Positions 4,599 through 18,921 of a stretch of 64,000 nt of DNA are shown piece by piece; position 1 is the stretch's first letter, and every line of letters begins with the position of its first letter. The position numbers and the translations under genes are program-made. The notes below the pieces were generated by a model. It made no database searches. It saw nothing but the letters and a program-made list of their open reading frames with translations, and was not told the DNA's origin. This DNA is from a bacterium (lineage in GTDB: Bacteria > J088 > JAWLBW01), in NCBI GenBank assembly GCA_041690355.1, contig JAWLHK010000005.1:62001-126000 (forward strand). Reading direction: 5' to 3'.

Positions 4599-5279
4599 AT
4601 GCAGCCGAAGTCACGAAAAAAATCGAAGCGCGCCGTTGCCGCCGACTCCGAAGCGGCCGCCCGCCTGCTCCAGGCCGCCCGGGCGCTGTTCGCCGCGAAG
4701 GGGTACGAGGCGGTGGGGATCCGCGAAATTGCCGCCGAGGCCGGGTGCAACCTGAGCCTCATCCAGTACTACTACGGCGGCAAGCAGGGGCTCTACCTTG
4801 CGATCTTCGAGGACAAGATCCGCACGGTGCGCGCCGCCCTCCCCCAGGCCTACGATCTGGATCCCGAGCCGCTCGGGCTGGATCGGGACGGATTCCGCGC
4901 GGTCTTCCAGGCACTGCTCACGGTGAACGTGCAGGCCTATGTCGACGACCCCGATTTCTTCCGCCTCGCGCAGCGGGAGCTCGTGGCCGGCGCGCCGCAG
5001 GGGAAGTCCATTCTCGAGGGGATGTTGACCGAGATGATGACGGGGCTGATCCGCCTCGTCGAGTACGGCAAGCGGCAGGGGTTCGTGCGCGCCGACCTGG
5101 ATCCGCTCGTGTTTCTGCTGCTCGTGAACCGGGGGGTCGACGGCTACCTCAATCACTGGGACATGTTCGGCGGCCCCCGCTCGACCCTCGGCCGGCGCAT
5201 GCTCAACCCCGCGCGGAATGCGGAGGCGCTGGTTCAGCAGATGGTCGCCGTGTTTCTGGATGGTGCGCTGACGCCTTAG
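4599..5279 (+). CDS. TetR/AcrR-family transcriptional regulator
   Basis: LLQAARALFAAKGYEAVGIREIAAEAGCNLSLIQYYYGGKQGLY HTH. Confidence 0.92.
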   Translation: MQPKSRKKSKRAVAADSEAAARLLQAARALFAAKGYEAVGIREIAAEAGCNLSLIQYYYGGKQGLYLAIFEDKIRTVRAALPQAYDLDPEPLGLDRDGFRAVFQALLTVNVQAYVDDPDFFRLAQRELVAGAPQGKSILEGMLTEMMTGLIRLVEYGKRQGFVRADLDPLVFLLLVNRGVDGYLNHWDMFGGPRSTLGRRMLNPARNAEALVQQMVAVFLDGALTP

Positions 5280-5442
5280 TAGACGCTGGGCGCTGGACGC
5301 TGGTCGCTTGGCGCTGGGGCCATCGTGCTCAGTTTCTCGTCCCTCATAATGGGACGGGTCCGGCACGGAAAACTCTGGCGCCCTGTAGCGTAACGCACCA
5401 CTGCCGTGGCAGGTTCACTTATGTTCCACGTACACTGCAGCC

Positions 5443-5820
5443 ATGGGACATGCCTTCGCCGATATCACACTGAGTTACCCGCGGCTTCCCGAACTGAAGC
5501 CGATCCAGGTTCGCGCGCTGGCGGATACCAGTTCTCTCATGCTCTGCCTGCCCGAGCATGTCGCCCTGAAACTGCAGCTCGAAAAAGAATCGGAACGCGA
5601 AGTGACCGTGGCCGATGGCCGGCGACAGAAGGTTCCCTACGTGGGGCCGCTCAAGGTCACCTTCGAGAATCTCTGCTGTGTGGGCGCGCTCGTCCTTGGC
5701 GATGAGGTACTGTTGGGCGCCGTTCCGATGGAAGACATGGACCTCGTGGTCCTTCCCGGTCGACGGGAAGTCATCGTCAATCCCGAATACCCCAATTTTC
5801 CGCACGCTCGCGTGAAGTGA
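5443..5820 (+). CDS. Clan AA (retropepsin-like) aspartic protease
   Basis: ALADTSS catalytic-type motif, VADGRR, LLGAVPMEDMDLVV. Confidence 0.85.
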   Translation: MGHAFADITLSYPRLPELKPIQVRALADTSSLMLCLPEHVALKLQLEKESEREVTVADGRRQKVPYVGPLKVTFENLCCVGALVLGDEVLLGAVPMEDMDLVVLPGRREVIVNPEYPNFPHARVK

Positions 5821-5844
5821 GCCTCTGGCGCGTTCCGCGCCCCG

Positions 5845-6159
5845 TCACGCAGCCGGCTTGACCTCGACCTTGAAGGCAAGCCCCGCCGCGCGGAGACTCT
5901 CTTCAATCGAAAGCCGGATCAGCAGGGCCGGCGGCACGTCGATCGCCTGGGCAATTTGATGCGCCTTTTCGGGACTGACCCCTTTGCGGCCCTTTTCGAT
6001 GTCGCAAAGGTTCGACGGCGAGATTCCGATCTGCTTCCCGAACTCCTTGAGGGTTAACGCCTCGGAATCCCGCCACGTTCGAAGAAACTCGCCGATCGAC
6101 AACTTACCAAGCCGCTTCTCCAGGCTGCGCACCCCAAACCTGCGCTTTTCAATAGTCAT
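5845..6159 (-). CDS. higA: XRE/HigA-type HTH antitoxin
   Basis: LTLKEFGKQIGISPSNLCDIEKGRKGVS HTH; directly downstream of and overlapping the RelE-like toxin. Confidence 0.7.
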   Translation of the reverse strand: MTIEKRRFGVRSLEKRLGKLSIGEFLRTWRDSEALTLKEFGKQIGISPSNLCDIEKGRKGVSPEKAHQIAQAIDVPPALLIRLSIEESLRAAGLAFKVEVKPAA

Positions 6160-6427
6160 GCTTACTTACCTCGATAACTTCGATCAGCTCAACATTTCCC
6201 TGCCGATCCTCTACATAGATAGCGCGATAGGCACGGTTCAACCGCACCGAGCGCTGCCCCCGACGCGTCCCCAGGAGTGGCTCATCATGAAACCCCTTGC
6301 GCTTCCTCACCTCGGCAAGTCCGCTCTCTTCGACGAGCGCCGCCCACAGCCGGAATTTGCGCAGAATGACTTCTGGAATCCGGTCGATCTGCTTCTGCAC
6401 TGACCTGTCCCAGGTGACTTTGTTCAC
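6149..6427 (-). CDS. higB: RelE/HigB-family mRNA interferase toxin
   Basis: 92 aa; HDEPLLGTRRGQRSVRLNRAYRAIY and C-terminal HDY; toxin-first gene order. Confidence 0.8.
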   Translation of the reverse strand: MNKVTWDRSVQKQIDRIPEVILRKFRLWAALVEESGLAEVRKRKGFHDEPLLGTRRGQRSVRLNRAYRAIYVEDRQGNVELIEVIEVSKHDY

Positions 6428-6440
6428 TTGACTTCCATCT

Positions 6441-6457
6441 TACTGCCTTCAGCAGTA
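6441..6457. promoter_or_regulatory. Probable TA autoregulatory operator
   Basis: TACTGC-N5-GCAGTA inverted repeat overlapping a minus-strand TAAGAT -10 box just upstream of the toxin start. Confidence 0.55.
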
Positions 6458-6556
6458 GCAACGCAATGAGCGAGAAGAAGCCCGGTCTTCATCGACAATC
6501 AGTGTGCACCGTCTTCGCCCCGCGGCATGGCTTTCATCGGCGCATCTCCGCGATTG

Positions 6557-6859
6557 GTACGCCAGCCCCGACTCTCATCGCGGAACTGCCCCGAGAACAT
6601 GAACCGGTCGTCCACATCGTTCACGAGGGGAACTGTGTCCGACCAGAAGGGATCATGCTCCACGTGGCGCACGATGGCGCCGCTTTCATCCGTGAGGAGA
6701 ATCGGCTCGCCGAGAATGCCGTTGTGGTACCAGTACACGGCTGTCGACCGCTGCTCCACAGGCGCCGCATGCGCCGGCGTGATCCAGAACTCGAGCACCC
6801 ACGCGGCGCCGCGAAGCGCATAGTTCATCGCCTCCCGCAATTCCGGATACTCGCGCGAA
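6557..6859 (-). pseudogene. Truncated RHS core fragment (paralog of 8950-9250)
   Basis: Encodes REYPELREAM...YWYHNGILGEPILLTDESG...FMFSGQFRDE; 1-nt deletion (actctcatcg vs actcgtcatcg) and loss of homology before the RHS cleavage motif. Confidence 0.85.
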
Positions 6860-7492
6860 CGGTCACCGGACGTCAGACGCCGGACGTCGGTGTCGGAACG
6901 AACCGAGGCATTCCCGGCACCATGTAGCGCGGGAGACCGCGACCGTTTACCCTGCGGAATCCAATACGCTCCAGGGCGTCTCCTGGGACGCTCAGGTCGG
7001 GGTTTGGGACTCTGGGCTTGGGAAGCCGGTATTGCCATTCGATAAATACCGTAGCAGACCGTTGAGCTGGCGTCCAACCCGATGCAGCGTCTCGCTCACT
7101 GCACGCCCGCTTTCCGGATCCATGAATTTCAAACGCTCGGCCAGCAGAAGCTGCGTCTCGACCTCGCAAAGCGAACCTCGGGAGACACGAAGATGGTAGA
7201 TGAACTCATTGTCGCTTCTTCGGCCGTGCCCCTCCGCGATATTCGACGGGACCGACACGGCAGCACGCTCGATCTGCTGACACAGTGAATAACGCTGCTC
7301 TTTCGGGAAGTTCTTCGACAGCCGATAGACCTCCTCCGCAAGATCCATTGCCCCCTGCCACACGTCCAGGTCCTTGAACGATTTTCCTCGCATACCCCCT
7401 CCTTTTCGAGCGAGTATATGCTCCCCCGCGGACAGCATTTGTCTGTGCCGACGTCCGACGTCCGACGTCCGAAGTCCGACGTCCTGTTACCG
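6860..7492 (-). mobile_element. Four-helix-bundle cassette copy 1, with ~31-bp imperfect terminal inverted repeats built of GGACGTC heptamers
   Basis: 6860-6890 matches the reverse complement of 7462-7492 at 26/31 nt; 6860-7429 is near-identical to 9508-10078; no transposase encoded, so mobility is inferred. Confidence 0.6.
6992..7393 (-). CDS. Four helix bundle protein (23S rRNA IVS protein/Avd-like family)
   Basis: FKDLDVWQ...FPKEQRYSLCQQIERAAVSVPSNIAEGHGR...EF..HL..SRGSLCEVETQL; AGGAGG RBS. Confidence 0.93.
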   Translation of the reverse strand: MRGKSFKDLDVWQGAMDLAEEVYRLSKNFPKEQRYSLCQQIERAAVSVPSNIAEGHGRRSDNEFIYHLRVSRGSLCEVETQLLLAERLKFMDPESGRAVSETLHRVGRQLNGLLRYLSNGNTGFPSPESQTPT

Positions 7493-8030
7493 GCGCACCC
7501 CTTCGGAACGCAGAATATCCAGGCGCGTTTTCATGGCTTCGATGCGTGCCGTGACCGTCGGGTCGGTCGTCGCCGCGGCCAGCGTGAGGGTTTCCGCGTT
7601 TCCGCCGCTGCCTCGCAGGCGGGCCAGCTCGCGGACGTCTTCGATGAGCCCCTGCCACGCCGCCTGGGCGATGGGGTTGCCGAGGTCGTTCGTGAGGGCG
7701 AGCACCGTGAAGGTCTCGTCGCCATCCGCATCCGCCGTCGAGAACGTGTCGAGCGGAACCGCCGGAAGCTCGACCCGCCCGGCCAGATCGAGGATTTCAT
7801 TCAGGAGCTGCAGATCTTCGAAGCTGAACAGCCCGAAGAACTGGGTCACAAACGGCTCGACCTGCTCGGTCGGAATGTCGCGCATGTCGGTCAGCAACTG
7901 ATCGACGGCGTCCTGCAGGCGTCGTATCCTCTGCCGCCGACGCCTTGACTTCGTCGAGGGTGAGCAGGCCGCTCGCGAGCGACACTAAAACCGACTCCGT
8001 ACCGCTGTAAGAATCGAGCAAGCGATGCCC
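7487..8030 (-). pseudogene. Frameshifted 3' remnant of an unknown gene
   Basis: Two coding-looking frames (LDSYSGTESVLVSLASGLLTLDEVK... and ...LQDAVDQLLTDMRDIP...) joined by a frameshift near 7920; no good start or RBS; stop codon lies inside the cassette inverted repeat. Confidence 0.55.
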
Positions 8031-8045
8031 TCGGCGACGCGACTA

Positions 8046-8465
8046 TCAACCCACGCGATGTCCTCTGAGTTGTCGCTTGCTGGACCACTCGATGCCTCCC
8101 GCAATCAGTAACCCGGATAGACAGAATACGGTATACATTCCAAAAGCTTGATATTCATTCGTGTACATCCCGGACACTCGTGCGTAGCCATCAATCACGG
8201 CATAGGCAACTGCCAACACAACGAGATAAGCTATTGACCAAGCAGACACTCTCCATCTGAGTCCAATGAAATTCGCTGCTGTCCTTCCGATCAGGCCGAA
8301 CACCAATCCCGCCAGGGTATAGATACCAAGGTACGCACTTCCGAACAGGGCGACCTCTCCAAGATCGTTATCCAGGAAGATCAATGAGCTTAGAATCGCC
8401 CCTCCAATAAACAAGTACGCACCGGCCAATGGTGCAAGACAAATCAGGACTGGGTCTGGCATCAT
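8046..8465 (-). CDS. Putative immunity protein (4-TM membrane protein)
   Basis: 139 aa, hydrophobic, low GC, starts 3 nt after the RHS toxin stop. Confidence 0.7.
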   Translation of the reverse strand: MMPDPVLICLAPLAGAYLFIGGAILSSLIFLDNDLGEVALFGSAYLGIYTLAGLVFGLIGRTAANFIGLRWRVSAWSIAYLVVLAVAYAVIDGYARVSGMYTNEYQAFGMYTVFCLSGLLIAGGIEWSSKRQLRGHRVG

Positions 8466-8468
8466 TTG

Positions 8469-9725
8469 TTACTCACAACAGGTGTACTTTGTTTCGAAGT
8501 CCGGAACTTCAATAAGCGACTTGTGGGTCGGAACGACCAGCGGAATTACCGTTCCTCCTAGTGATTCGCATGCTTTGCAAGCAGGGGGGAGCGGGCCGAT
8601 TGGTCGGCCCGATTTCTCCCTGCCAACCCCTCCAATAGAGTGAACCTCAGAGGAAATCGTCCCCTTGCAGAAGTAGCATTTGAAAACCAGATTGTTACCC
8701 ACGCTCTTGTCCTGCTTGGTGCCAAAGAGCTTATCGAGCTTGTCGCCCCATCCTTGATACCCAATAAACCGACTCCCACAAGTGGTAGCTACTTTTTCTT
8801 GCAAGCACTTGGTCCCAGTACGATCCACATTGGACAGCGGATTTCCTGCAGCATAGATAAATGGCAGTTCATCCACAAATCCAATAGTAACCAGCGGATC
8901 CACCTGCACATACCTTCCCACATCCGCCGCGTACCACCGGTTCCAGTTGTACGCCAGCCCCGACTCGTCATCGCGGAACTGGCCGGGGAACATGAACCGG
9001 TCGTCCACATCGTTCACGAGCGGGACCGTGTCCGACCAGAATGGATCATGCTCCACGTGGCGGACGATTGTCCCGCTTTCATCCGTGAGAAGGATCGGTT
9101 CGCCGAGGATGCCGTTGTGGTACCAGTAGACGGCTGTCGACCGTTGCTCAATGGGCGCCGCGTGCGCCGGCGTGATCCAGAACTCGAGGACCCACGCGGC
9201 GCCTCGCAAGGCATAATTCATCGCCTCCCGCAGCTCCGGATACTCGCGGAACACCTGCACCGCGATCGGCGAGAGATCCCGGTAGTAGAATCGGATGATC
9301 CATTCGCCGAGGTCGTCCCCGGAGAGCACCTGGCCGCGGAACCCACGCAGCACCTGGAGCGCCTGGTGAGAAGCAAGGTCGCATTGGGCCTGGCCGTTGT
9401 AGGCAATGGCTGTTGCGGCGCAACAGCATCCACCGCCTCCGCCGCCTCCGTCGCCCGTCTGGGCGCGCAGGACTTTCGTCACGATCTTCGCGAGCGGTTG
9501 GCCATACCGGTCATCGGACGTCGGACGCCGGACGTCGGTATCGGAACGAACCGAGGCATTCCCGGCACCATGTAGCGCGGGAGACCGCGACCGTTTACCC
9601 TGCGGAATCCAATACGCTCCAGGGCGTCTCCTGGGACGCTCAGGTCGGGGTTTGGGACTCTGGGCTTGGGAAGCCGGTATTGCCATTCGATAAATACCGT
9701 AGCAGACCGTTGAGCTGGCGTCCAA
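8469..9725 (-). CDS. Orphan RHS module: RHS core C-terminus, internal CFI-box-like domain and Cys-rich C-terminal toxin tip (true start uncertain; RHS homology begins ~9506)
   Basis: YGQPLAKI...YWYHNGILGEP...FPGQFRDDESGLAYNWNRWYAADVGRYVQVDP...YAAGNPLSNVDRTG; GC drops across the tip. Confidence 0.88.
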   Translation of the reverse strand: MDASSTVCYGIYRMAIPASQAQSPKPRPERPRRRPGAYWIPQGKRSRSPALHGAGNASVRSDTDVRRPTSDDRYGQPLAKIVTKVLRAQTGDGGGGGGGCCCAATAIAYNGQAQCDLASHQALQVLRGFRGQVLSGDDLGEWIIRFYYRDLSPIAVQVFREYPELREAMNYALRGAAWVLEFWITPAHAAPIEQRSTAVYWYHNGILGEPILLTDESGTIVRHVEHDPFWSDTVPLVNDVDDRFMFPGQFRDDESGLAYNWNRWYAADVGRYVQVDPLVTIGFVDELPFIYAAGNPLSNVDRTGTKCLQEKVATTCGSRFIGYQGWGDKLDKLFGTKQDKSVGNNLVFKCYFCKGTISSEVHSIGGVGREKSGRPIGPLPPACKACESLGGTVIPLVVPTHKSLIEVPDFETKYTCCE

Positions 9726-10078
9726 CCCGATGCAGCGTCTCGCTCACTGCACGCCCGCTTTCCGGATCCATGAATTTCAAACGCTCGGCCAGCAGAAGCT
9801 GCGTCTCGACCTCGCAAAGCGAACCTCGGGAGACACGAAGATGGTAGATGAACTCATTGTCGCTTCTTCGGCCGTGCCCCTCCGCGATATTCGACGGGAC
9901 CGACACGGCAGCACGCTCGATCTGCTGACACAGTGAATAACGCTGCTCTTTCGGGAAGTTCTTCGACAGCCGATAGACCTCCTCCGCAAGATCCATTGCC
10001 CCCTGCCACACGTCCAGGTCCTTGAACGATTTTCCTCGCATACCCCCTCCTTTTCGAGCGAGTATATGCTCCCCCCGC
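9508..10078 (-). repeat. Four-helix-bundle cassette copy 2 (direct repeat of 6860-7429; lacks the upstream heptamer arm)
   Basis: Identical to copy 1 over the gene and flanks except for a few substitutions in the heptamer arm and a C-run length difference. Confidence 0.93.
9640..10041 (-). CDS. Four helix bundle protein, identical to 6992-7393
   Basis: Same 133-aa translation as copy 1. Confidence 0.93.
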   Translation of the reverse strand: MRGKSFKDLDVWQGAMDLAEEVYRLSKNFPKEQRYSLCQQIERAAVSVPSNIAEGHGRRSDNEFIYHLRVSRGSLCEVETQLLLAERLKFMDPESGRAVSETLHRVGRQLNGLLRYLSNGNTGFPSPESQTPT

Positions 10079-10118
10079 AGTGCGCACCTGCCGCTGAGAA
10101 CGAGGCGATGCCATAGAA

Positions 10119-10592
10119 TCAGTCAGCCAAAGGCATCGACACCCAGGTTTTCGACTCGACATCCCCGTAGTATAGAACCGCTGCCTTTTCAAAGTATTCG
10201 ACAATAACACCGTCATATTGAAGCTTGATCGTTTTCGCTTTTTCGCTCGATGCACGAGATGATGAATAAGTGCGACCGGACGCTGCTTTTCGCAGGAAGG
10301 CAATTCCATCATTCCGCGAGCCGAGCTCTTGATGAAACGTCACGCGGCAATCGGCATCACACACGACAACTTCAAATCGAAGCCCATTGGATAGCTTTCG
10401 AAGGATTGCAGCCCCTTTATTCTCCGGGCCAAAGATCACGCGGACGATTCCCGGTGTATCAGGCGCTTTTGCAGCAGCGTCCGAATCAAGGTCACCCTTT
10501 TCTACTATTGTCGCATTGCGTGAGTGGAGCCATTGGTCAAGCCCCCGGGGCTCCGATGATAGAACTGTGGCGATAACAAGAATCGCGATCAT
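10119..10592 (-). CDS. Putative periplasmic immunity protein
   Basis: Low GC; hydrophobic N-terminus MIAILVIATVLS; ATGA overlap with the upstream toxin-tip-like remnant. Confidence 0.6.
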   Translation of the reverse strand: MIAILVIATVLSSEPRGLDQWLHSRNATIVEKGDLDSDAAAKAPDTPGIVRVIFGPENKGAAILRKLSNGLRFEVVVCDADCRVTFHQELGSRNDGIAFLRKAASGRTYSSSRASSEKAKTIKLQYDGVIVEYFEKAAVLYYGDVESKTWVSMPLAD

Positions 10593-10695
10593 AAGTCGAC
10601 CCCTACCTTCTTGCAATCACAGGCGGCTGGGACGCCAGACTTGTTCCCACCCTGCTGAAAATGCCAATGGTCGAGAAATCGATCCCCCCGCTCAT
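10589..10695 (-). pseudogene. Possible toxin C-terminal remnant
   Basis: ~35 codons NERGDRFLDHWHFQQGGNKSGVPAACDCKKVGVDL ending in an ATGA overlap with the next gene; no start of its own. Confidence 0.35.
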
Positions 10696-13600
10696 TTACT
10701 TCCGCTGCTTCCGTATAGCGGCTTTCACGGCGCGGCCCACAGCCTCGGCGGTCGGCTCGAGGACCGGGTTGCCGTCGACGAGAACCACCGGAAGCCTGCC
10801 GGGAAATGCAGAATGGCGCTGAGCCGTGTCCATGATCGCGTCCATGGCTTCTGCATGCTTGTCCGAAAAGAGGCACTGACGGAAGTCCTTCCGACTGAGC
10901 TTCGCCTTTTCGGCGACGGCAAACAGATCGTCAAAACCCTCGACCCGGGCGTCGAACAGCAACGCGTGGAAGTCCTGCAATCGCCGCTTCTCTGCCGCAC
11001 AGAGTTGCGCCCGAAGCATGTAGGGGGTCGTCTCGTTCCAACTCATCGGCATGCCGACGACGAGGAGACCAGCCTCCGGGTGCTTCTGAGGAAGCTCCGC
11101 GAGCGCCGTCTTGAAGAACGTCTTCTCGTCCGCCGAATACGCTTGAAAGGCAAGAACCTCGACCTTCGCGTTGGAGCGCCCCTGGTACGGTAGCGATGTC
11201 CTGCCGGGCTCGCCGAGAATGTCCCGGATCGCGTTTCGCAGTTCACCTTCGCGGGCACGGCCCCTGGTCTGGCCGCGCCGGAAACCGGGCACGGGCGAAC
11301 CGGCCGCTTTCACGTACTGCCGGCTGCGGGCGGGCGGCCAGGCTTCGGCCATCCGTCCGAAGCATGCCTGGAATGCCCCAGTATCAAGCCCTGCCTCGCC
11401 GGCCAGGTCCTGGAACCCCTTGTTACCCCACCGGTCACGCTCGGAGAACAGAGTTCTCAGATAGCGATCGAGCTTGCCCCCATCATGGGCGCAGTGGACG
11501 GCAAGCGCCGCATCATGTCCTGCGTCGAGCATCGGCGCCGGGTACACGGCGATCCGCAATCGACCCTCTGCTTTGCGCAAGACTTCGGGGGCCAGCTCCC
11601 GGAGGAACCTCGACGCGAACGGCTGTGCGTAATCCAGCCAGACTTCGAGGGTCTCGGCGGCGTCGGCTGGCCCGAGCAGAATCGGTTTCTCCATGGCCAC
11701 CGGTTCATTCGATCCGGGGGCGACCGACGCCTGCACCACAGAAGCCTGCGAACTCGGGCTGCTCTCCTGTGCAGCCGGTGCCGGCTCGGCTTTCGATTGC
11801 GCCGGCGCCGCGCCGCCAAGCGCCGCCTGAACCGCCTCTTCGTAGTGGGACATCGGCATGAGCCCCACGATGGTCTTGTCGCCGATCTGCATGTAGGGGA
11901 GGGCCTTGACTCGTCTCCGATCGCCTTCGGCGACGTCGGCGAACACAGCTTTCATCTGCTCGGGGTCTTCCTGGCAGGCCGCGAACTTCACCAGGTCGAG
12001 CCCGAGTAATTTCGCGAACGTGCGCAGCTCTTCGGCCGACCCGCGCCCGAGGTTCGAGAGCACCAGGCCCTGATAAGCAGCCAGCTTGTCCTGGGCATGC
12101 GCGCAACGGACCGCCACAGCAGTCAGGAGCGAGCTGTGCCCGGTCTGGGGACGATCGTAGAAGCTGAACCGGAGCTGCGGGAAACGCTCTGCAAGTCTGG
12201 TGATGACCTCCATATGCAGCCGGGCGCTCATACTCCCCTGATAGTCGTGATAGACGACCACCTCGAGAGCCGGCTTTTCCGCCCCCCACGCGGGTCGTTC
12301 GGCCTTCCCAGCAGTCTGCGTGCGAGGCGGCGAGGGAGCGTCGGCTGCCTGCGTCGCGGATACCCCCGCGGCGTTCAACCGTTCTGCAGCAACGCGCAGC
12401 AGGCCCCGATCCGTTCCAACATAGAGATGTCCCGCCCGATCGGCGGCCACCGCGTGCACGACCCCCGCTCCGGGCCCCCAGCGGGTCACTCCGGGAAGGC
12501 GGTCGTTCAGATCCGCAAGCAGCTTCCACTCTCCCCTCTGGAGCCGGAGCAACCCTGCGGCGGAGCCGAACACCCAATCGTCGGTACCTAGACGGGCGCC
12601 ACGGGTTCCCATGTACAGGGCCGGTGTCGTGCGGTAGATCGCCTGATAAGTCCGATCGAACTCGGCATACGGTCTCCAGGCATCCCCCTCATGACGGACG
12701 AATCCTTTCAGCGTCCCCACGACCGCAACGCCGGGCTCCATCGGGGTATAGGCCGTGGCGAACCAGATCTTCGTTTCGTCCGAAAGGGAGAGCCGTTCGA
12801 AGCGCTCGCCATTCCACTCGAGCACCCCACCCACGAGCGGCGCGCCGTTCAGAATCCGGTGATTCTCATCCGAGCAGACAACCCTGACCTTGCCCGCATG
12901 GGTGAGATGGAGCGTGGCGGGCAGATCGCTCCGGGCGGGGAACTGCTCCGGATCGGTCGCCCAGGAGAATTTCTGCAGCCGCCCTTCATGCCAGCGGACG
13001 ACCCACGGCGGCGCGGTCATCCAGACGGCGCCATCGGGGGCCGTGAGGAAATCGATGATAGGATCGGAAATGCCGGCTTCCTTCAGATCGACGCGCTGCT
13101 CGACTGCGTCGGCTTCAGGGTGAATCGCGTACAGCACGGCGTGCTCGGCGAACAGCACTTCGCCGGCCGCTCCCTCGCGCAGTCGGCGGGTCGTCTTCGC
13201 TGCGACCATGCGGGGCTCGAGTTGACCGTCTGTATTCAGCACATCGATGCGATCCGCGCGTGCAAGGTAGAGTTTCTGGCCGCCGGCGGCAGAGAGCATA
13301 TCGAGCACGGGCCCGTCGGTCAAGCTCTGCAACGACGGGTCTGCGCGCCAGAAATCGGTCGCGGTCATGAGCACGGCATGCCCGACGGAAGCGACCGCGC
13401 CGAAAACGGGTTGCGCCTGGCCATCGCGGACGACGTGGAGCGGTTCGGTGCGGTGCGCGGCATAGAGGTAGACTCCGCGGGGCGTCAGCAGGCCGAGCGC
13501 AGCCCGGCGCCCATCAAGGGGAATACTCGTCAGGCCGTTCACCGGAAGGCCCGGCGGAATGCCGCGCAGGGGAACGGCAACCGTGCGGCCCTTCAGAGTC

Positions 13601-16600
13601 ATCAGCCGCTCGGGCACCCCCCGCCGCAGCACAAACGTCTCGCCTCCGGCGACCGCGACATCGTCTACCCGGCCGGGCAGAATGAATCTCCCCTTTGAAC
13701 GGCCCGACTGCTCGACAAGACCCGAGGGCATGGCCAGCAGCAGCGTCTCGCCCACCTGCGCGGCCGCCACCGCATCACGCGGCAACGATCCGGGGCGGGG
13801 CCTTCCGGCAAGCAACAGCTCGGCACCGCGGGTTCCTCGGTAGACACCCGCCCTCCCCGCTTGCGCCTCGCGCTTCACGGCTCCCGAAGCATCCATTTGC
13901 AGGAGCTGCTCGCCCGTTGACGCCTTGACGATTCCGGAATCGCTCACGACCACGCGGGCCGGCCCTTTCAGCGATGCGCCATGGGGCGCAGGGCTCCAGA
14001 GCCCCGGGTCGCCGAAAGCCGACTCCGCGAACAGCGAAGCACCCGCGAGCGTCTGCAATGGTTCCGCCTCGACCGTCTTCAGGGCACGCTCGGCCGCAGC
14101 ATTCCCGGCAGCCGCCTGGCGTTCGACGGCATCGAGCAGCAGGCTCCAGGTATCCCAGTCTTCGAGCGTGACGCCGTCCGGGCGGGTGCGGGACAGCAAC
14201 TCGTGAGCACTCAGAAGCACTTCGCGCTGCATCTCCCGCCAGGCGTCCCCTTCGCGGCCCGCAGCGGTCCGTCCGACAAAGCGCAGCACCTCCCACGCCT
14301 CTTCGGCCGCCGAAAGCCGCGCGCCAAGGTGCGCCTGCAGCTCGCGGGCAAGGGCGAGCCCCGCGCGCAGGGCCTCCAATTCGGACCCCTTGACTGCCGC
14401 CGCACTCATGGCCTCGGCGTAGGCGAGCCGCAGGCGGGCGACCGAGGGTGGATCTTCGAACAGTTCGGGCACCGAGCCAGGTTCGAAGCCGAACGTCTCG
14501 CGCAGAATGACGCGCACCTGGCGGATATCCGGATCGGCACCCCCGTTTTCGCGCAGGAACTCGGCGAGCGGGAACCGGCGCCCCTGGTATTCGAGCTCCA
14601 TCCCCTCTCCGGTGGCGAGCGGATGGAAGAGCAGCGTGCCATACCGGTTCGTCTCGATGGTAGCAAGTCGCGAACCCTCATACACGAGGGTCGCGCGGAA
14701 ATCCGCCGACGTCGTCACCCCCCGCAGATATTCCCCTTCATCGTCATACCAGGCGCGCACCCAGGCCTCGCCCACACGGACTTCGACGGGGCGCCCCGAA
14801 ACCGGATGGTCCACTCGAATCTCTTCCCGGCCATTCGCATGGCGGATGATGACCCTGCCCCTGGCCGCGTCGACCTTGACCTCTGCCGACTCGGTCTGGG
14901 ACTTCTGGCGGGCGCTGTCGAACCACGCGATGTAACGCAGACTGTTACCGATACCCGGAACGCGCCGGTACTGCGCGGTGTACGCCAGACGGTGATTTCC
15001 GAGCTGGCCGAACGCCTCCCCCTGATGAGAGAGGTTGACCGAGTTGGGCTCGATGCCGCGCAGCCTCTCTGTCAGCAGAAGCGCCACAGCCGGGCTGCCT
15101 CCGTACATGACGTGCAGCTGGATCAGCATCCGAAGCCGATAGACCGACGTGGGGGCGCGGTCGAGGTAGCGCGAAGCAATGGACAGTCCCGATCGCCCCC
15201 CGATCCCGCCCTGGGTGGCCGCGTCCCAGATCAGGTCGCCGTCATCCGGATTCCGTTCGAGGGCGTGCGCGAGGGCCTCGCGCGCCGCATCGCGATCGGC
15301 TTTGGCGACCAGTGCGAAGTACCGGAACTTGCGGGCGAAGCCGGGCCGGCCGCCCATGGCTTCGTAAGCACCGATTTGACGGAGCGTCTCGTCAGCCTGG
15401 CCCGCCTCGATACTACCGTCGCGCAGGTCAGCCACGAGCGTTTCGATGCGTGCCTCCTGCATGGCGAGCCGATCCCCGAACGGCGCCTCTTCGAGGTCGT
15501 CCGCAATCCGATCGAGATGCTTGCCGATGCGTTCAAAGTCCTTCAAGCGCAGAAGTGCGCGCACATAAATTCCGTGCGGCCAGAACCGGCCCGGATTCCG
15601 TTCGGCGGCTTCGCGAAGCGCTTCGTTCCACGCGCGCTCCTCGTCGCCCCGCTCGATGTGGAACCCGTCCCATACCGACGGCGACCAGACGTACCGTTCC
15701 CGAAGACGCTGGTGGTGAAGCGGGGCGGCATCGCTCCCCCCCAGCCGGATATCCCCTACATAGTCTTCGAACGAACCAGGAGCCGCGTGGCCGACCGACT
15801 TTTCGAGCAGCGTGACGGCCTTCGCACGGTCGCCCAGCGACTCGTAGGTTTGCGACAGACGGCGAAGCAGCGACGGCGAACCGGGGTAGGACTCCATTGC
15901 GCGTTCCGCGATCCTGTCCAAGGTCTGGCGGCCCAATCCTGGCGACGCGGCAAGCAGCCATTCGTACGTCACATGCGTCAGCTGCGCATCGAGAAGACCG
16001 TCGGGAAGTTCACCGCCCGCGCGTCCCGCGAGCCGTCCCCACGCAAACGCCATGGCACGCCGGTCCGGAGTCGCCCCCCGCGTTACGGCCGTCACAGCCC
16101 ATGCATACGCCGCAGCATAATTCCGGCTCGCCGACAGAGAGAAGGCAAGCAGCGCGGCCCCGGCAGCCGAGCCGCCCTTCGCGGCGCGTTGCGTTGCCCG
16201 CAGAGCGCGCCCTTGATGACCGGCCTTCGACCATGCCGCATGCACGGCGCGAATCCTCTCCTCATCATTGATGATATCGGCGGCGACCGTTTCAACCGCA
16301 GCGGCCTCGTCGAGGCGGGCCAGGACCTCTAGCAGCTTTCCCCGCAGCCGGTCGCCGAGCATGGGAAACGGGTACCGCGCAAGCGCCTCTTCCAGCTGCA
16401 CCCTCGCCGTGTCGATGTGGCCCGTTTGAATCCAGCGGTCGGCCAGCCAGAGCACCGCGAACGGATCTTCCCCCTCTTCGTTCATCCACTCTGCAACGGC
16501 GAAGGCTTCTTCGTACGGATCGGCGGGACGCCAGCGAAGCACCCGGCTGACCATACGTGCAAGCGGCGTATCCTTCTGCGCCCCCTCGAAAACCAGTTCC

Positions 16601-17106
16601 TCCACCTGTTCGCGAACGGTTTCGTCCGAAGCACACCGGATCAGGATCTCGGCGGTCACGAAATGGTCGGGAAAGCGCTCGAGCATGGATTCTCCGAACC
16701 CGAGCGCCCGCCGGGCGTCAAACTGCTCGAGTGCACCGTAAGCGGCATAATAGAGCGGCCACAGCGCGAGACCCGTGTCAGGCTCGGGAACCCGTGCCGC
16801 CAGGTCGCTCCACCGGCGGGCGCGGAACAGTTGCCAGGCGGTCGCGGGGGATTCCGTCGGCGGTTCCGTCCACTCGCTCAAGGCGGCACCCAGCGGATGC
16901 GCTCCACCGTGGGTCCGCACCGCCTCGCGCAACGCGTCCATCTTTCCATCTCGATAGAGCCGCGCCCACTCCTTGACCTCGCCCCCAGCATATGCAGACG
17001 GAACGTCGGGTTCAATCTTCGGGGGAAACGCCCCTCGCCGGGAGGAGTCGGTCTGGCAGGCGATCACGGATACCGAGAGCAGACAGAGCAGCAGCATATT
17101 CCGCAT
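10696..17106 (-). CDS. Giant lipoprotein (~2136 aa): TPR region, YD-like segment, beta-propeller repeats, three DsbA-like thioredoxin-fold domains
   Basis: Lipobox SVIAC after MRNMLLLCLL; GAGGTG RBS; TPR-like helices; DGAVWM/GHLYVGTDRGL propeller motifs; three C-terminal DsbA-like repeats. Confidence 0.8.
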   Translation of the reverse strand: MRNMLLLCLLSVSVIACQTDSSRRGAFPPKIEPDVPSAYAGGEVKEWARLYRDGKMDALREAVRTHGGAHPLGAALSEWTEPPTESPATAWQLFRARRWSDLAARVPEPDTGLALWPLYYAAYGALEQFDARRALGFGESMLERFPDHFVTAEILIRCASDETVREQVEELVFEGAQKDTPLARMVSRVLRWRPADPYEEAFAVAEWMNEEGEDPFAVLWLADRWIQTGHIDTARVQLEEALARYPFPMLGDRLRGKLLEVLARLDEAAAVETVAADIINDEERIRAVHAAWSKAGHQGRALRATQRAAKGGSAAGAALLAFSLSASRNYAAAYAWAVTAVTRGATPDRRAMAFAWGRLAGRAGGELPDGLLDAQLTHVTYEWLLAASPGLGRQTLDRIAERAMESYPGSPSLLRRLSQTYESLGDRAKAVTLLEKSVGHAAPGSFEDYVGDIRLGGSDAAPLHHQRLRERYVWSPSVWDGFHIERGDEERAWNEALREAAERNPGRFWPHGIYVRALLRLKDFERIGKHLDRIADDLEEAPFGDRLAMQEARIETLVADLRDGSIEAGQADETLRQIGAYEAMGGRPGFARKFRYFALVAKADRDAAREALAHALERNPDDGDLIWDAATQGGIGGRSGLSIASRYLDRAPTSVYRLRMLIQLHVMYGGSPAVALLLTERLRGIEPNSVNLSHQGEAFGQLGNHRLAYTAQYRRVPGIGNSLRYIAWFDSARQKSQTESAEVKVDAARGRVIIRHANGREEIRVDHPVSGRPVEVRVGEAWVRAWYDDEGEYLRGVTTSADFRATLVYEGSRLATIETNRYGTLLFHPLATGEGMELEYQGRRFPLAEFLRENGGADPDIRQVRVILRETFGFEPGSVPELFEDPPSVARLRLAYAEAMSAAAVKGSELEALRAGLALARELQAHLGARLSAAEEAWEVLRFVGRTAAGREGDAWREMQREVLLSAHELLSRTRPDGVTLEDWDTWSLLLDAVERQAAAGNAAAERALKTVEAEPLQTLAGASLFAESAFGDPGLWSPAPHGASLKGPARVVVSDSGIVKASTGEQLLQMDASGAVKREAQAGRAGVYRGTRGAELLLAGRPRPGSLPRDAVAAAQVGETLLLAMPSGLVEQSGRSKGRFILPGRVDDVAVAGGETFVLRRGVPERLMTLKGRTVAVPLRGIPPGLPVNGLTSIPLDGRRAALGLLTPRGVYLYAAHRTEPLHVVRDGQAQPVFGAVASVGHAVLMTATDFWRADPSLQSLTDGPVLDMLSAAGGQKLYLARADRIDVLNTDGQLEPRMVAAKTTRRLREGAAGEVLFAEHAVLYAIHPEADAVEQRVDLKEAGISDPIIDFLTAPDGAVWMTAPPWVVRWHEGRLQKFSWATDPEQFPARSDLPATLHLTHAGKVRVVCSDENHRILNGAPLVGGVLEWNGERFERLSLSDETKIWFATAYTPMEPGVAVVGTLKGFVRHEGDAWRPYAEFDRTYQAIYRTTPALYMGTRGARLGTDDWVFGSAAGLLRLQRGEWKLLADLNDRLPGVTRWGPGAGVVHAVAADRAGHLYVGTDRGLLRVAAERLNAAGVSATQAADAPSPPRTQTAGKAERPAWGAEKPALEVVVYHDYQGSMSARLHMEVITRLAERFPQLRFSFYDRPQTGHSSLLTAVAVRCAHAQDKLAAYQGLVLSNLGRGSAEELRTFAKLLGLDLVKFAACQEDPEQMKAVFADVAEGDRRRVKALPYMQIGDKTIVGLMPMSHYEEAVQAALGGAAPAQSKAEPAPAAQESSPSSQASVVQASVAPGSNEPVAMEKPILLGPADAAETLEVWLDYAQPFASRFLRELAPEVLRKAEGRLRIAVYPAPMLDAGHDAALAVHCAHDGGKLDRYLRTLFSERDRWGNKGFQDLAGEAGLDTGAFQACFGRMAEAWPPARSRQYVKAAGSPVPGFRRGQTRGRAREGELRNAIRDILGEPGRTSLPYQGRSNAKVEVLAFQAYSADEKTFFKTALAELPQKHPEAGLLVVGMPMSWNETTPYMLRAQLCAAEKRRLQDFHALLFDARVEGFDDLFAVAEKAKLSRKDFRQCLFSDKHAEAMDAIMDTAQRHSAFPGRLPVVLVDGNPVLEPTAEAVGRAVKAAIRKQRK

Positions 17107-17196
17107 GGAGCACCTCACAACAGAGGAGAAACCGGAGCGCATCGCCCCGAAAGCACATCTTATCTCGCAGCAAAGCGCTGTCAAGTGCGGGGCACA

Positions 17197-17881
17197 CTGG
17201 TCGCTGGGCGATGGACGCTGGGCGCTGGGGGGATCCTGCTGCCGTAACGCTCCTCAGCCCAACCCGGCGAACGGATCGAAGTGACCGCTCGGAGGGAAAG
17301 GATGGCGATCAGGACAATGGCTCGGGTTCGCTCTCGGCTTTCAGGTACCGGAGAAGGCCGTGGATCATCCGGCCGATGGTCTGGATGCGCTCGCTGACAG
17401 AATGAACCTGCTCCGCGTCGACGAATCCCAGGGAGTGCGCGACCAGGAGCTGCGTCTCCAGCTCGTACAGGGAACCCCGGGAGACGCGGACGTGTTAGGA
17501 GAATTCACGCTTCGCGCCCCTTCCCTTGCCCTCGGCGATGTTCGAGGGGACGGAGACGGCCGCCTTTTCCATCTGCTGACAGAGGGAATACCGCTGATGC
17601 TGCGGAAAGGCAACCGTCAGGCGGTACACGTCGGCGACGAGCTTGAGCGACTCCTGCCACACTTCCAGATCCTTATACGACTTCCCCATCACAGCCTCCG
17701 AGCAGAGCGATGCACCCATCCAACTTCAGGCCCAAAGGTCCGCGCAGGCAATACCCAATTCATGGTATGTTTCCGCGCCCGGAGTGCACGCTGCTCTAGT
17801 TTCCCCAGCGCCCAGCGACCAGCACCCGTGGTTCACGCAGCCCTTGCTTCCCCAGCGCCCAGCGTCCAGCGACCAGCGCCC
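17197..17881. repeat. Inverted GCGCTGG-heptamer arrays bracketing the third four-helix gene
   Basis: 17197-17230 vs 17803-17826 and 17850-17881; 19-nt perfect inverted match CCCCAGCGCCCAGCGTCCA. Confidence 0.85.
17309..17689 (-). pseudogene. Third four helix bundle gene, interrupted by an in-frame TAA
   Basis: MGKSYKDLEVWQ...SNIAEGKGRGAKREFS*HVRVSRGSLYELETQL...LLRYLKAESEPEPLS; TAA at 17495-17497 aligns with a Tyr in the other copies. Confidence 0.85.
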
Positions 17882-17949
17882 AAAGGCCCCTCACTGGTGC
17901 ACCCCGGCCCCCCGCGGTAGAATATCGGAACCTTCCCAAAGCGTTCCCC

Positions 17950-18921
17950 ATGAATCCCCTCGGCACCCTGCTGCGTACGACTGAAGACCTCTTCGGCCAC
18001 GCGTGGTCGATCGGCGAACTGGCCGTCCTCTTCTCGCGCATCGAGGAAGTGCGCGGCGACCCCTATCTGAACGAGGTGCTCGACGATATCGAGCGGCGGG
18101 GCTTCTATCCGCAACTGCCGGTGCCCACGCTGACCGACCGCGGCGACGGATGGCTGCGGGGGAACAATCCGTACCGCCGGCTGGGGGATGGAAAACCGGA
18201 TCGCATTCTCGCCCGCCGCGTGCCGGTGGATCCGGAGACGCCGTCGCGGCGCCTCGTGGTCGTCTGTCACTGCTACGGCGTGCCACTCCCGAAAGTCATG
18301 GAGCGGCTCTTCGGGTTGCACACGATGCGGGACGTCGACGTGCTCTACAACATCATGAACCACCACGCCCTGGGGGATTTCCCCGTGTGGCCGGGGACGG
18401 GGTTCGCGAGTGCGCGGTTGTCGCATTTCATCGAGAACCTGCGCTCGGCCATCGCCGGCGTGCGCGGCCTGGTCGAACACCAACGGCTCGCCCACCGGTA
18501 CGACAGCGTGACCGTGGTCGGCTTCTCCATCGGCGGGCAGCTGGCGATGCACCTGTCGAACACGGGGGTGGTGGATTCGGCCGTGCTGTACTGTCCGGTG
18601 ACGAGCGTGCACCAGACGGCGCAGGAGCTCGGCGCCATGCGCTGGATCGTGCGGCCGCTCATCCAGGCGACGAGCCGGTTCAACGGGAACTTCGACCTAG
18701 AGGCCCTGCGCATCACCGAGCCGCTGCGCTACGACTCCCGCGTGCCGCAGGAGCGTACGCACGTCATCGCCCAGCGCCACGACGCCCTGACGCCGCTGCA
18801 CCAGCTGGAGTCGATCCGTCGCAAGTACCCGAACGTGCGCTGGCACGAATTCGGGGGAACGCATGTCGTTCCCGCCGGCCTGCGCGCCTTCCCGCGCATC
18901 ATCAGAGAAGCATTGCGCTAG
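17950..18921 (+). CDS. Alpha/beta-fold hydrolase
   Basis: GFSIGG nucleophile elbow; candidate Asp (RHDALTP) and His (GGTH). Confidence 0.8.
   Translation: MNPLGTLLRTTEDLFGHAWSIGELAVLFSRIEEVRGDPYLNEVLDDIERRGFYPQLPVPTLTDRGDGWLRGNNPYRRLGDGKPDRILARRVPVDPETPSRRLVVVCHCYGVPLPKVMERLFGLHTMRDVDVLYNIMNHHALGDFPVWPGTGFASARLSHFIENLRSAIAGVRGLVEHQRLAHRYDSVTVVGFSIGGQLAMHLSNTGVVDSAVLYCPVTSVHQTAQELGAMRWIVRPLIQATSRFNGNFDLEALRITEPLRYDSRVPQERTHVIAQRHDALTPLHQLESIRRKYPNVRWHEFGGTHVVPAGLRAFPRIIREALR

Follow-up and report, generated by a model that had tools for sequence, protein, structure and literature searches.

A PF05635 cassette with inverted heptamer arms, probably of an IVS-like selfish element family, adjoins orphan RHS fragments in a bacterial toxin island

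The 23S rRNA of Leptospira carries intervening sequences (IVS) that contain an open reading frame (ORF). Heptanucleotide tandem repeats of bacteria, described as the STRR sequences of cyanobacteria and as long simple-sequence repeats, have been noted for decades, and we know of no explanation for them. Orphan rhs-CT/immunity modules, as Poole et al. are said to have proposed in 2011, are produced by C-terminal displacement. Here we analyze a window of 64,000 nt (C5:62001-126000) from a 42-contig draft bacterial genome with scaffold gaps (N beside C7:221362), in which a cassette with a gene of PF05635, a large orphan protein family, directly precedes fragments of RHS genes. The host belongs to a deep, poorly sampled lineage, with only two genomes each for its family and its class in the collection searched. 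Among the closest described systems, the IVS of Coxiella burnetii is reported to encode S23p within a stem that RNase III cuts (PMC4990558), and orphan rhs-CT/immunity modules are treated by Starsta et al. 2020 (PMC7043789), which also describes internally expressed Rhs toxin-antitoxin pairs in Salmonella. An initial annotation of the window proposed that the cassette end is a recombination hotspot, a portable promoter, or both, within a candidate transposase-free system for shuffling or expressing toxins. We confirm the underlying observation and support that interpretation in part. With some reserve, we favor the view that the cassette represents one family of copies of a selfish, IVS-like element of wide occurrence, a PF05635 gene inside inverted arrays of a private heptamer, and that such elements have accumulated in a toxin island. 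The edge of its arm is best read as a rearrangement-prone joint.

Coordinates below are window positions unless a contig or locus is named, and all relevant genes lie on the minus strand. Cassettes A (6860-7427) and B (9508-10075) are identical at 565 of 568 positions (99.5%) by repeat search, MAFFT, and BLASTN; the near-identical ~570-bp pair originally drawn at 6860-7429 and 9508-10078 was correct to within 3 nt. No difference falls in the first 533 bp, and all three mismatches lie in the terminal 35 nt holding the arm, a clustering with a chance of ~(35/568)^3 = 2e-4 under uniform mutation. As annotated, both copies carry a four-helix-bundle gene (6992-7393 in A, 9640-10041 in B) behind a GGAGG ribosome-binding site and a TATACT box, and the two 133-aa products are identical. 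The protein covers model positions 1-106 of 106 in PF05635 at 128.7 bits (cut-off 33.8) and scores 122.1 bits against TIGR02436 (cut-off 24), profile matches that assign it to the four-helix-bundle (23S rRNA IVS protein) family. A third cassette, C2 (C2:371891-372393), shows 94% identity in aligned blocks, the alignment being interrupted by a 42-nt gap in the 3′ untranslated part. This copy likewise sits directly 5′ of an RHS fragment, which is followed by another C-terminal domain and an Lcl_C-domain ORF.

The constant end of the cassette is the outer edge of a heptamer-array arm, (GGACGYC)n. Beyond the gene and a 3′ untranslated stretch, the terminal ~30 nt form a tandem heptamer array that reads GGTCAYC-(GGACGYC)3-GGT on the plus strand (array 6868-6888 and outer flank 6860-6867 in A; array 9516-9536 and outer flank 9508-9515 in B). 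At least 37 GGACGYC arrays are distributed over the contigs of this genome, with a common outer flank (GGTCWTC) and inner flank (GGYRAARCAAG), and the sister genome G001 contains GGACGYC arrays while lacking the cassette. Upstream of the gene, copies A and C2 have a second array, built of the same unit in inverted orientation, so the element consists of a gene and two inverted arms. The units, located no more than ~200 bp from either gene end, are GGACGTC ×5.3 and CCGACGT ×3.4 in A, and alike in C2. The left arm of A, (GGACGTC)5 in sense orientation, lies at 7449-7484, and in the minimum free energy RNA fold of 6850-7495 (−279.5 kcal/mol, z −3.2) it is predicted to pair with the right arm as a closing stem. 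This arm-enclosed geometry holds for A and C2 and not for B, in which the left arm is absent and identity to A starts 22 nt inside it. Viewed as inverted ends, the arms read CGGTAACAGGACGTC versus CGGTCACCGGACGTC; we saw no clear target duplication and identified no transposase, and a scan for terminators gave no hit in the arms.

Period-7 tandem arrays of at least 2.9 copies number 866 in the whole genome and total 27 kb, the commonest canonical units being AATCGTC (128), ACGAGTG (92), and AATCAGG (81). Since the genome has only 11 PF05635 genes, most arrays are solo. These 11 hits have arrays on both sides in eight cases, each with its own unit, on one side in two, and on neither in one; among the eight, one has 8-mers and one has direct instead of inverted arrays. 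A fourth, diverged element lies in the window itself: at 17197-17882 on the minus strand, a PF05635 gene (17357-17674) with ~70% nucleotide identity to the cassette and an in-frame TAA stands between its own inverted GGGCGCT/CCCAGCG arrays, just upstream of a 2162-aa ORF. A 47-nt repeat at 17775-17868 is part of these arrays.

We compared 62 genome loci and 80 metagenome loci from many phyla that encode relatives of its protein at no more than 59% identity, the closest reaching 57% amino acid identity in genome contigs and 59% in metagenome contigs. The loci, which include orthologous sets, are not independent. Where at least 200 bp was available on both sides (56 genome and 63 metagenome loci), period-7 arrays flanked the gene on both sides in 23/56 and 25/63, on one side in 9 and 16, and on neither in 24 and 22, respectively. 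The inverted-array architecture thus recurs in 48 of 119 loci across many phyla. Of all loci with two arrays, 23 of 24 (genome) and 27 of 29 (metagenome) have units that are reverse complements of each other, allowing one mismatch; which heptamer is used varies between genomes. Close to the gene, array density was 1.37 (genome) and 1.52 (metagenome) per kb versus 0.154 and 0.211 elsewhere in the same loci, making arrays 7-9 times denser beside PF05635 genes. Our search of the open-access literature found no paper linking the PF05635 family to heptamer repeats or to RHS.

The nearest neighbors at the 62 genome loci are partners in housekeeping or defense operons, with the elements in the spacers (trpE|trpG, enoyl-CoA hydratase|thiolase, sdhA|sdhB, carboxyltransferase|biotin carboxylase, BrxC|PglX-like, and ymdB|thioesterase). 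Of 57 elements, 48 run in the direction of their upstream gene and 38 in that of their downstream gene, which makes them resemble passengers on host transcripts rather than promoter carriers. No RHS gene occurred among the 114 nearest-neighbor ORFs of the genome loci, and tblastn with three RHS proteins of this genome gave no match in the 142 related loci (957,540 bp). The enrichment for RHS that the initial annotation anticipated is therefore missing, and the RHS link is local to this genome rather than a property of the element family. Some spacers are occupied across related genomes: trpE|trpG in Acidobacteriaceae, hydratase|thiolase in Saprospiraceae, and sdhA|sdhB in Bacteroidota (L060, L066, L070, L078, L079, L090, and L099; L091-L100; L076 and L084). 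These look like old, vertically inherited insertions, and the Saprospiraceae set has lost recognizable arrays.

Compared with the ORF-bearing 23S rRNA IVS, as far as it is described in PMC4990558, the cassette is alike in its PF05635 protein, in being a selfish unit of ~0.4-0.6 kb, and in having ends that pair around the ORF. It differs in lying between protein-coding ORFs instead of in a 23S rRNA helix, and in a stem built of tandem heptanucleotides of which the genome holds many solo arrays. The STRR-type repeats share the 7-bp unit, the location in spacers, and the many copies per genome, whereas the inverted pairs around a PF05635 gene, here and in the 48 related loci, set the present arrays apart and would offer heptamer arrays a possible partner protein and a hairpin geometry.

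At the RHS side of the joint, fragment B with its C-terminal domain CT1 (8469-9507) begins at YGQPLAK, where ...GACGTCCGATGACCG meets GTATGGCCAACCG, and fragment A (6553-6859) begins at REYPELR, where ...GACGTCCGGTGACCG meets TTCGCGCGAG. Both junctions share the cassette end ...GACGTCCGRTGACCG, which bears out the claim that one end is joined to different RHS positions. Copy C2 adds a third position, with ...GATGACCG joined to GCCAGTGCAAGTCTTCCGCGAG at VQVFRE, 12 nt from the A junction. Fragment B holds 255 nt more RHS than fragment A and is ~90% identical to all other fragments in its RHS part. The RHS parts of A and B are 89.7% identical, with 29 differing sites in the shared 272 nt and, among 90 codons, 22 synonymous and three non-synonymous changes. 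The contrast drawn at the outset between diverged, mostly synonymous RHS parts (22 of 25 changed codons) and near-identical cassettes (565/568) is thus upheld, and by these identities the cassette spread or was homogenized after the RHS parts had diverged.

A fourth orphan, E (L031 17597-19333; 578 aa), lies behind the C2 fragment without a cassette. The statement that a cassette heads each orphan RHS module accordingly holds for the A, B, and C2 fragments and fails for E. Orphan E reads straight across both junction positions as uninterrupted RHS, and so serves as the empty site that the initial annotation suggested looking for. TIGR03696 (cut-off 32.5) matches fragment B at 53.1 bits, the C2 fragment at 56.8, and E at 46.9, each of them the C-terminal portion of a core that retains the PxxxxDPxGL motif and lacks the N-terminal part. 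Fragment A, truncated ahead of the motif, has no TIGR03696 match; a 1-nt deletion near 6574 and the loss of homology before the DPxGL core end mark it as a frameshifted, truncated pseudogene remnant. The full-length parent RHS that the initial annotation suggested looking for was absent: tblastn of the assembly finds only the four fragments, a full-length RHS on contig C26 gives no match to orphan E at E ≤ 1e-3, the only related genome of the family and class has no such parent, and the best full-length relative anywhere is 45% identical. A Gly/Cys-rich insert (GGGGGGGCCC...) in the RHS core fragments (~9170-9400; L031 ~18310-18480) scores 37.7 and 38.7 bits against NCBIfam NF041770 (CFI-box-CTERM), just below the cut-off of 40, and is an unusual passenger for an RHS shell.

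Fragment B ends in a Cys-rich C-terminal domain of ~115 aa from no known family, the presumed toxin CT1. The 139-aa predicted membrane protein encoded next (8046-8465) is presumed from its position to be the immunity protein of CT1; neither product has a family match in Pfam or NCBIfam profile searches. The following 136-aa ORF (7487-7897), whose stop codon touches the left arm of cassette A, may be a former immunity gene; in a search of 5.8 billion proteins its sole match was itself. These features resemble known orphan rhs-CT/immunity modules in their 5′-truncated cores with the Rhs-associated core motif, in the variable C-terminal domain and small ORF that follow, and in standing several in a row with core fragments of different lengths. 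They are unlike them in that no full-length rhs with a homologous core lies upstream or anywhere in the assembly, and in where the fragments start, which for three of the four is exactly the arm of a PF05635 element and not the end of the immunity gene before it.

Copies A and C2 are not independent. They share a remnant of the 136-aa ORF upstream (56 bp of it in C2), the left arm, and a near-identical RHS junction; their cassettes are 94% and their RHS parts 94.8% identical, with an in-frame 12-nt indel at the joint. By this comparison, they appear to be one duplicated composite, which leaves at most two independent junction events instead of three. In C2, the 136-aa ORF has been largely removed by a deletion that stops 8 nt away from the left arm, a rearrangement endpoint that fits the arm edges as places where rearrangements stop. 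We considered a simple recent tandem duplication of the 2648-bp unit, which is ruled out by RHS parts only ~90% identical.

The history we propose has three steps. One element would first have come to lie between the 136-aa ORF and an orphan RHS fragment. The composite would then have been duplicated, giving A and C2, which are now ~5-6% diverged in cassette and RHS and whose junctions are 12 nt apart. Very recently, the cassette interior would have been copied between A and B, 2.6 kb apart: gene conversion could have overwritten an older cassette, or one-sided repair could have been primed in an array that already headed fragment B. The constant cassette end is the outer edge of the arm, a structured and repetitive sequence at which insertions, deletions, or illegitimate joins would come to a stop. 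The confinement of the three mismatches to the terminal stretch with the arm implies that the arm of B is older or had a history of its own, or that arrays mutate faster.

Several observations weigh against this account. The mismatch clustering may reflect nothing beyond hypermutable arrays, and conversion onto an older B cassette should have left older upstream homology, of which none is evident. The mostly synonymous RHS divergence indicates that the RHS genes of B and of A/C2 evolved separately, while functional, before they were joined to the cassette, which favors at least two joining events at the same edge. Three RHS positions meet this edge within ~5 nt of the start of RHS homology, a regularity beyond what random deletions would lead one to expect. 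In each of the three copies, the RHS reading frame stays open into the cassette (offsets of 12 and 255 nt, both multiples of 3), at ~1 chance in 9, which could hint at selection. Moreover, five of the 11 PF05635 genes in this genome, from three lineages, lie within ~2 kb of RHS sequence, more than chance placement would give.

Part of the original hotspot proposal stands. The end is a special one, the arm edge of a genome-wide repeat family joined to three RHS positions; the support comes from no more than two independent junctions in one draft genome. Among dispersed-repeat ends (≥150 bp) generally, 42 of 321 fall within 15 bp of a heptamer-array edge versus 1.05% of random positions, a 12-fold excess whose control is inadequate because arrays and repeat ends both favor spacers, and 8 of the 42 come from this cassette family. 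Elsewhere, at C7:221058-221078 and 221362-221382, two identical GGACGTC arrays, each with 70 nt or more of inner flank, stand at a spacing of 304 bp, with homology starting exactly at the outer flank GGTCGTC; the second copy meets a scaffold gap (N), so this may be an assembly effect.

A different reading takes the arm edge as an active joining end, with the cassette forming the terminal part of incoming RHS core-CT-immunity-small ORF-cassette modules or else capturing fragments. Each arrival would displace the 3′ end of a resident RHS gene behind the right arm, amounting to transposase-free C-terminal displacement. We regard this as possible but doubtful. The use of one arm edge at three RHS positions speaks for it, as does the pairing of an RHS part ~10% diverged, mostly synonymously, with a cassette 99.5% identical to A. 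Integration through cassette homology would be expected to leave the order seen here (cassette, module, cassette, displaced fragment), and on C26 a PF05635 element also occupies the downstream end of an orphan RHS gene and its small ORF. Against these points, RHS is near none of the 142 related elements, A and C2 count as one event (n ≤ 2), orphan E was displaced without a cassette, the assembly offers no full-length RHS target, and cassette B is an incomplete unit because its left arm is absent. No recombinase lies nearby, and the sole reverse transcriptase is on another contig. The narrower proposition that the outer arm edge is a real joining end, protein-independent or PF05635-assisted, from which cassettes move or are copied and strand 3′ ends behind them, strikes us as similarly doubtful. 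If it were true, RHS loci in this genome would have been struck repeatedly, and cassettes bracketing toxin/immunity modules would let these swap through cassette homology. The layout recalls the gene cassettes of integrons (attI/attC), in which a constant sequence also starts variable modules and promoterless accessory arrays include toxin-antitoxin pairs. The resemblance is one of layout only, as there is no integrase nearby, there are no attC-like core sites, and the far ends of the modules are undefined.

The locus presents the gene-plus-arms element from a new side, with its arm edge fused to three different points of a second gene family. An active joint would account for the spread of such elements without a transposase and for the origin of some orphaned gene ends. 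If instead the edge is inactive, the locus is still a clean case of selfish elements accumulating in a toxin island and a warning against inferring a system from three non-independent copies. The 568-bp direct repeats, 2.6 kb apart, bracket the RHS-B/CT1/139-aa/136-aa block and constitute a ready substrate for gain or loss of the module by homologous loop-out or duplication. RecA could thus loop out or duplicate the RHS-CT1/immunity module between the two direct copies, and read-through transcription of the orphan genes may occur.

Could the cassette instead serve the orphan modules, as a promoter or as an RNase III-type processing stem for expression of the toxin and immunity genes behind it? 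The cassette points the same way as the RHS fragments and directly adjoins them, copies A and B combine TATACT with a strong ribosome-binding site, all three copies have an RHS frame that stays open into the cassette, and related elements tolerate positions inside operons. Other observations speak against such a role, however. A scan for sigma-70-type promoters found no site at the cassette and one site elsewhere in 5 kb, versus 1.7 expected from shuffles. The proposed −10 box reads TTTACT in the C2 copy, whose ORF is intact, and between the PF05635 stop and the RHS fragment none of the start codons ATG, GTG, and TTG occurs in frame behind a ribosome-binding site. Fragment A, moreover, is a frameshifted stump, and co-orientation of 48 of 57 related elements with the upstream gene suggests dependence on host transcription. 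We consider a service role quite unlikely, and the portable promoter of the initial annotation finds no backing in these data. A dedicated toxin-shuffling or expression system, although possible, is unsupported.

It is very improbable that the tandem is an assembly artefact in which one cassette from two strain contexts was chained by the assembler and no single genome contains both copies. The genome is a gapped draft, and the lack of differences in the first 533 bp means that short reads could not have phased two contexts. Even in that case, two upstream and two downstream contexts would exist and both RHS junctions would stay real; the third copy has its own junction on another contig, and window positions 5000-18000 are free of N. 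In one set of public DNA contigs (X1), only three short pieces match the locus (34, 21+19, and 265 nt), none crossing a junction; the 265-nt contig corresponds to 10157-10421, within a 165-aa ORF.

A diversity-generating retroelement or other Avd-dependent system acting on the RHS C-termini is effectively refuted: PF05635 proteins are homologous to Avd through a four-helix-bundle fold family, according to PMC10053308, and give weak Avd-model matches, but both scores fall below cut-off (DivGenRetAVD 35.4 versus 80; the other Avd model 34.4 versus 40), the only RVT_1 hit in the genome is on contig C18 with none near the locus, template/variable repeats and an adjacent reverse transcriptase are lacking, and the RHS differences are mostly synonymous with ~55-65% transitions, which is not adenine-directed mutagenesis.

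In the 5′ to 3′ direction of the minus strand, the island comprises the diverged PF05635 pseudogene element (17197-17882), the 2162-aa ORF (10696-17184), the 165-aa ORF (10119-10616), cassette B, RHS fragment B with CT1, the 139-aa and 136-aa ORFs, the (GGACGTC)5 array, cassette A, RHS stump A, and a RelE-like/HTH gene pair that forms the downstream border. The 2162-aa protein is not an RHS protein; it has a lipoprotein-like signal, TPR repeats, and at least two thioredoxin/DsbA-like domains. The 165-aa ORF directly upstream of cassette B has a hydrophobic N-terminus and no match in Pfam or NCBIfam profile searches. At the border, the HTH (XRE-type) gene (5845-6159) matches HTH_31 at 7.7e-11, and the RelE/HigB-like gene (6149-6427) scores 22.1 bits against RelE_StbE, under the cut-off. 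Beside this pair, a 125-aa ORF on the plus strand (5443-5820) gives weak matches to retropepsin-like aspartyl proteases (E ~1e-3, under cut-offs). G+C content drops to 51-60% across 8.0-10.4 kb compared with ~65% in the surroundings. An Rfam search of 5800-18000 returned no match.

A second RHS island lies at C26:12001-42000 (L032, L033). Its 2402-aa full-length RHS carries Big_9, cadherin, and NHL domains, and one PF05635 gene is located ~1.9 kb upstream of it. An orphan RHS gene in the same island is 76% identical to the core of the full-length gene, with a tyrosine integrase and a DUF4365 gene between the two. Behind the small ORF of this orphan, a frameshifted PF05635 gene stands between CAATGGT/TTGACCA arrays.

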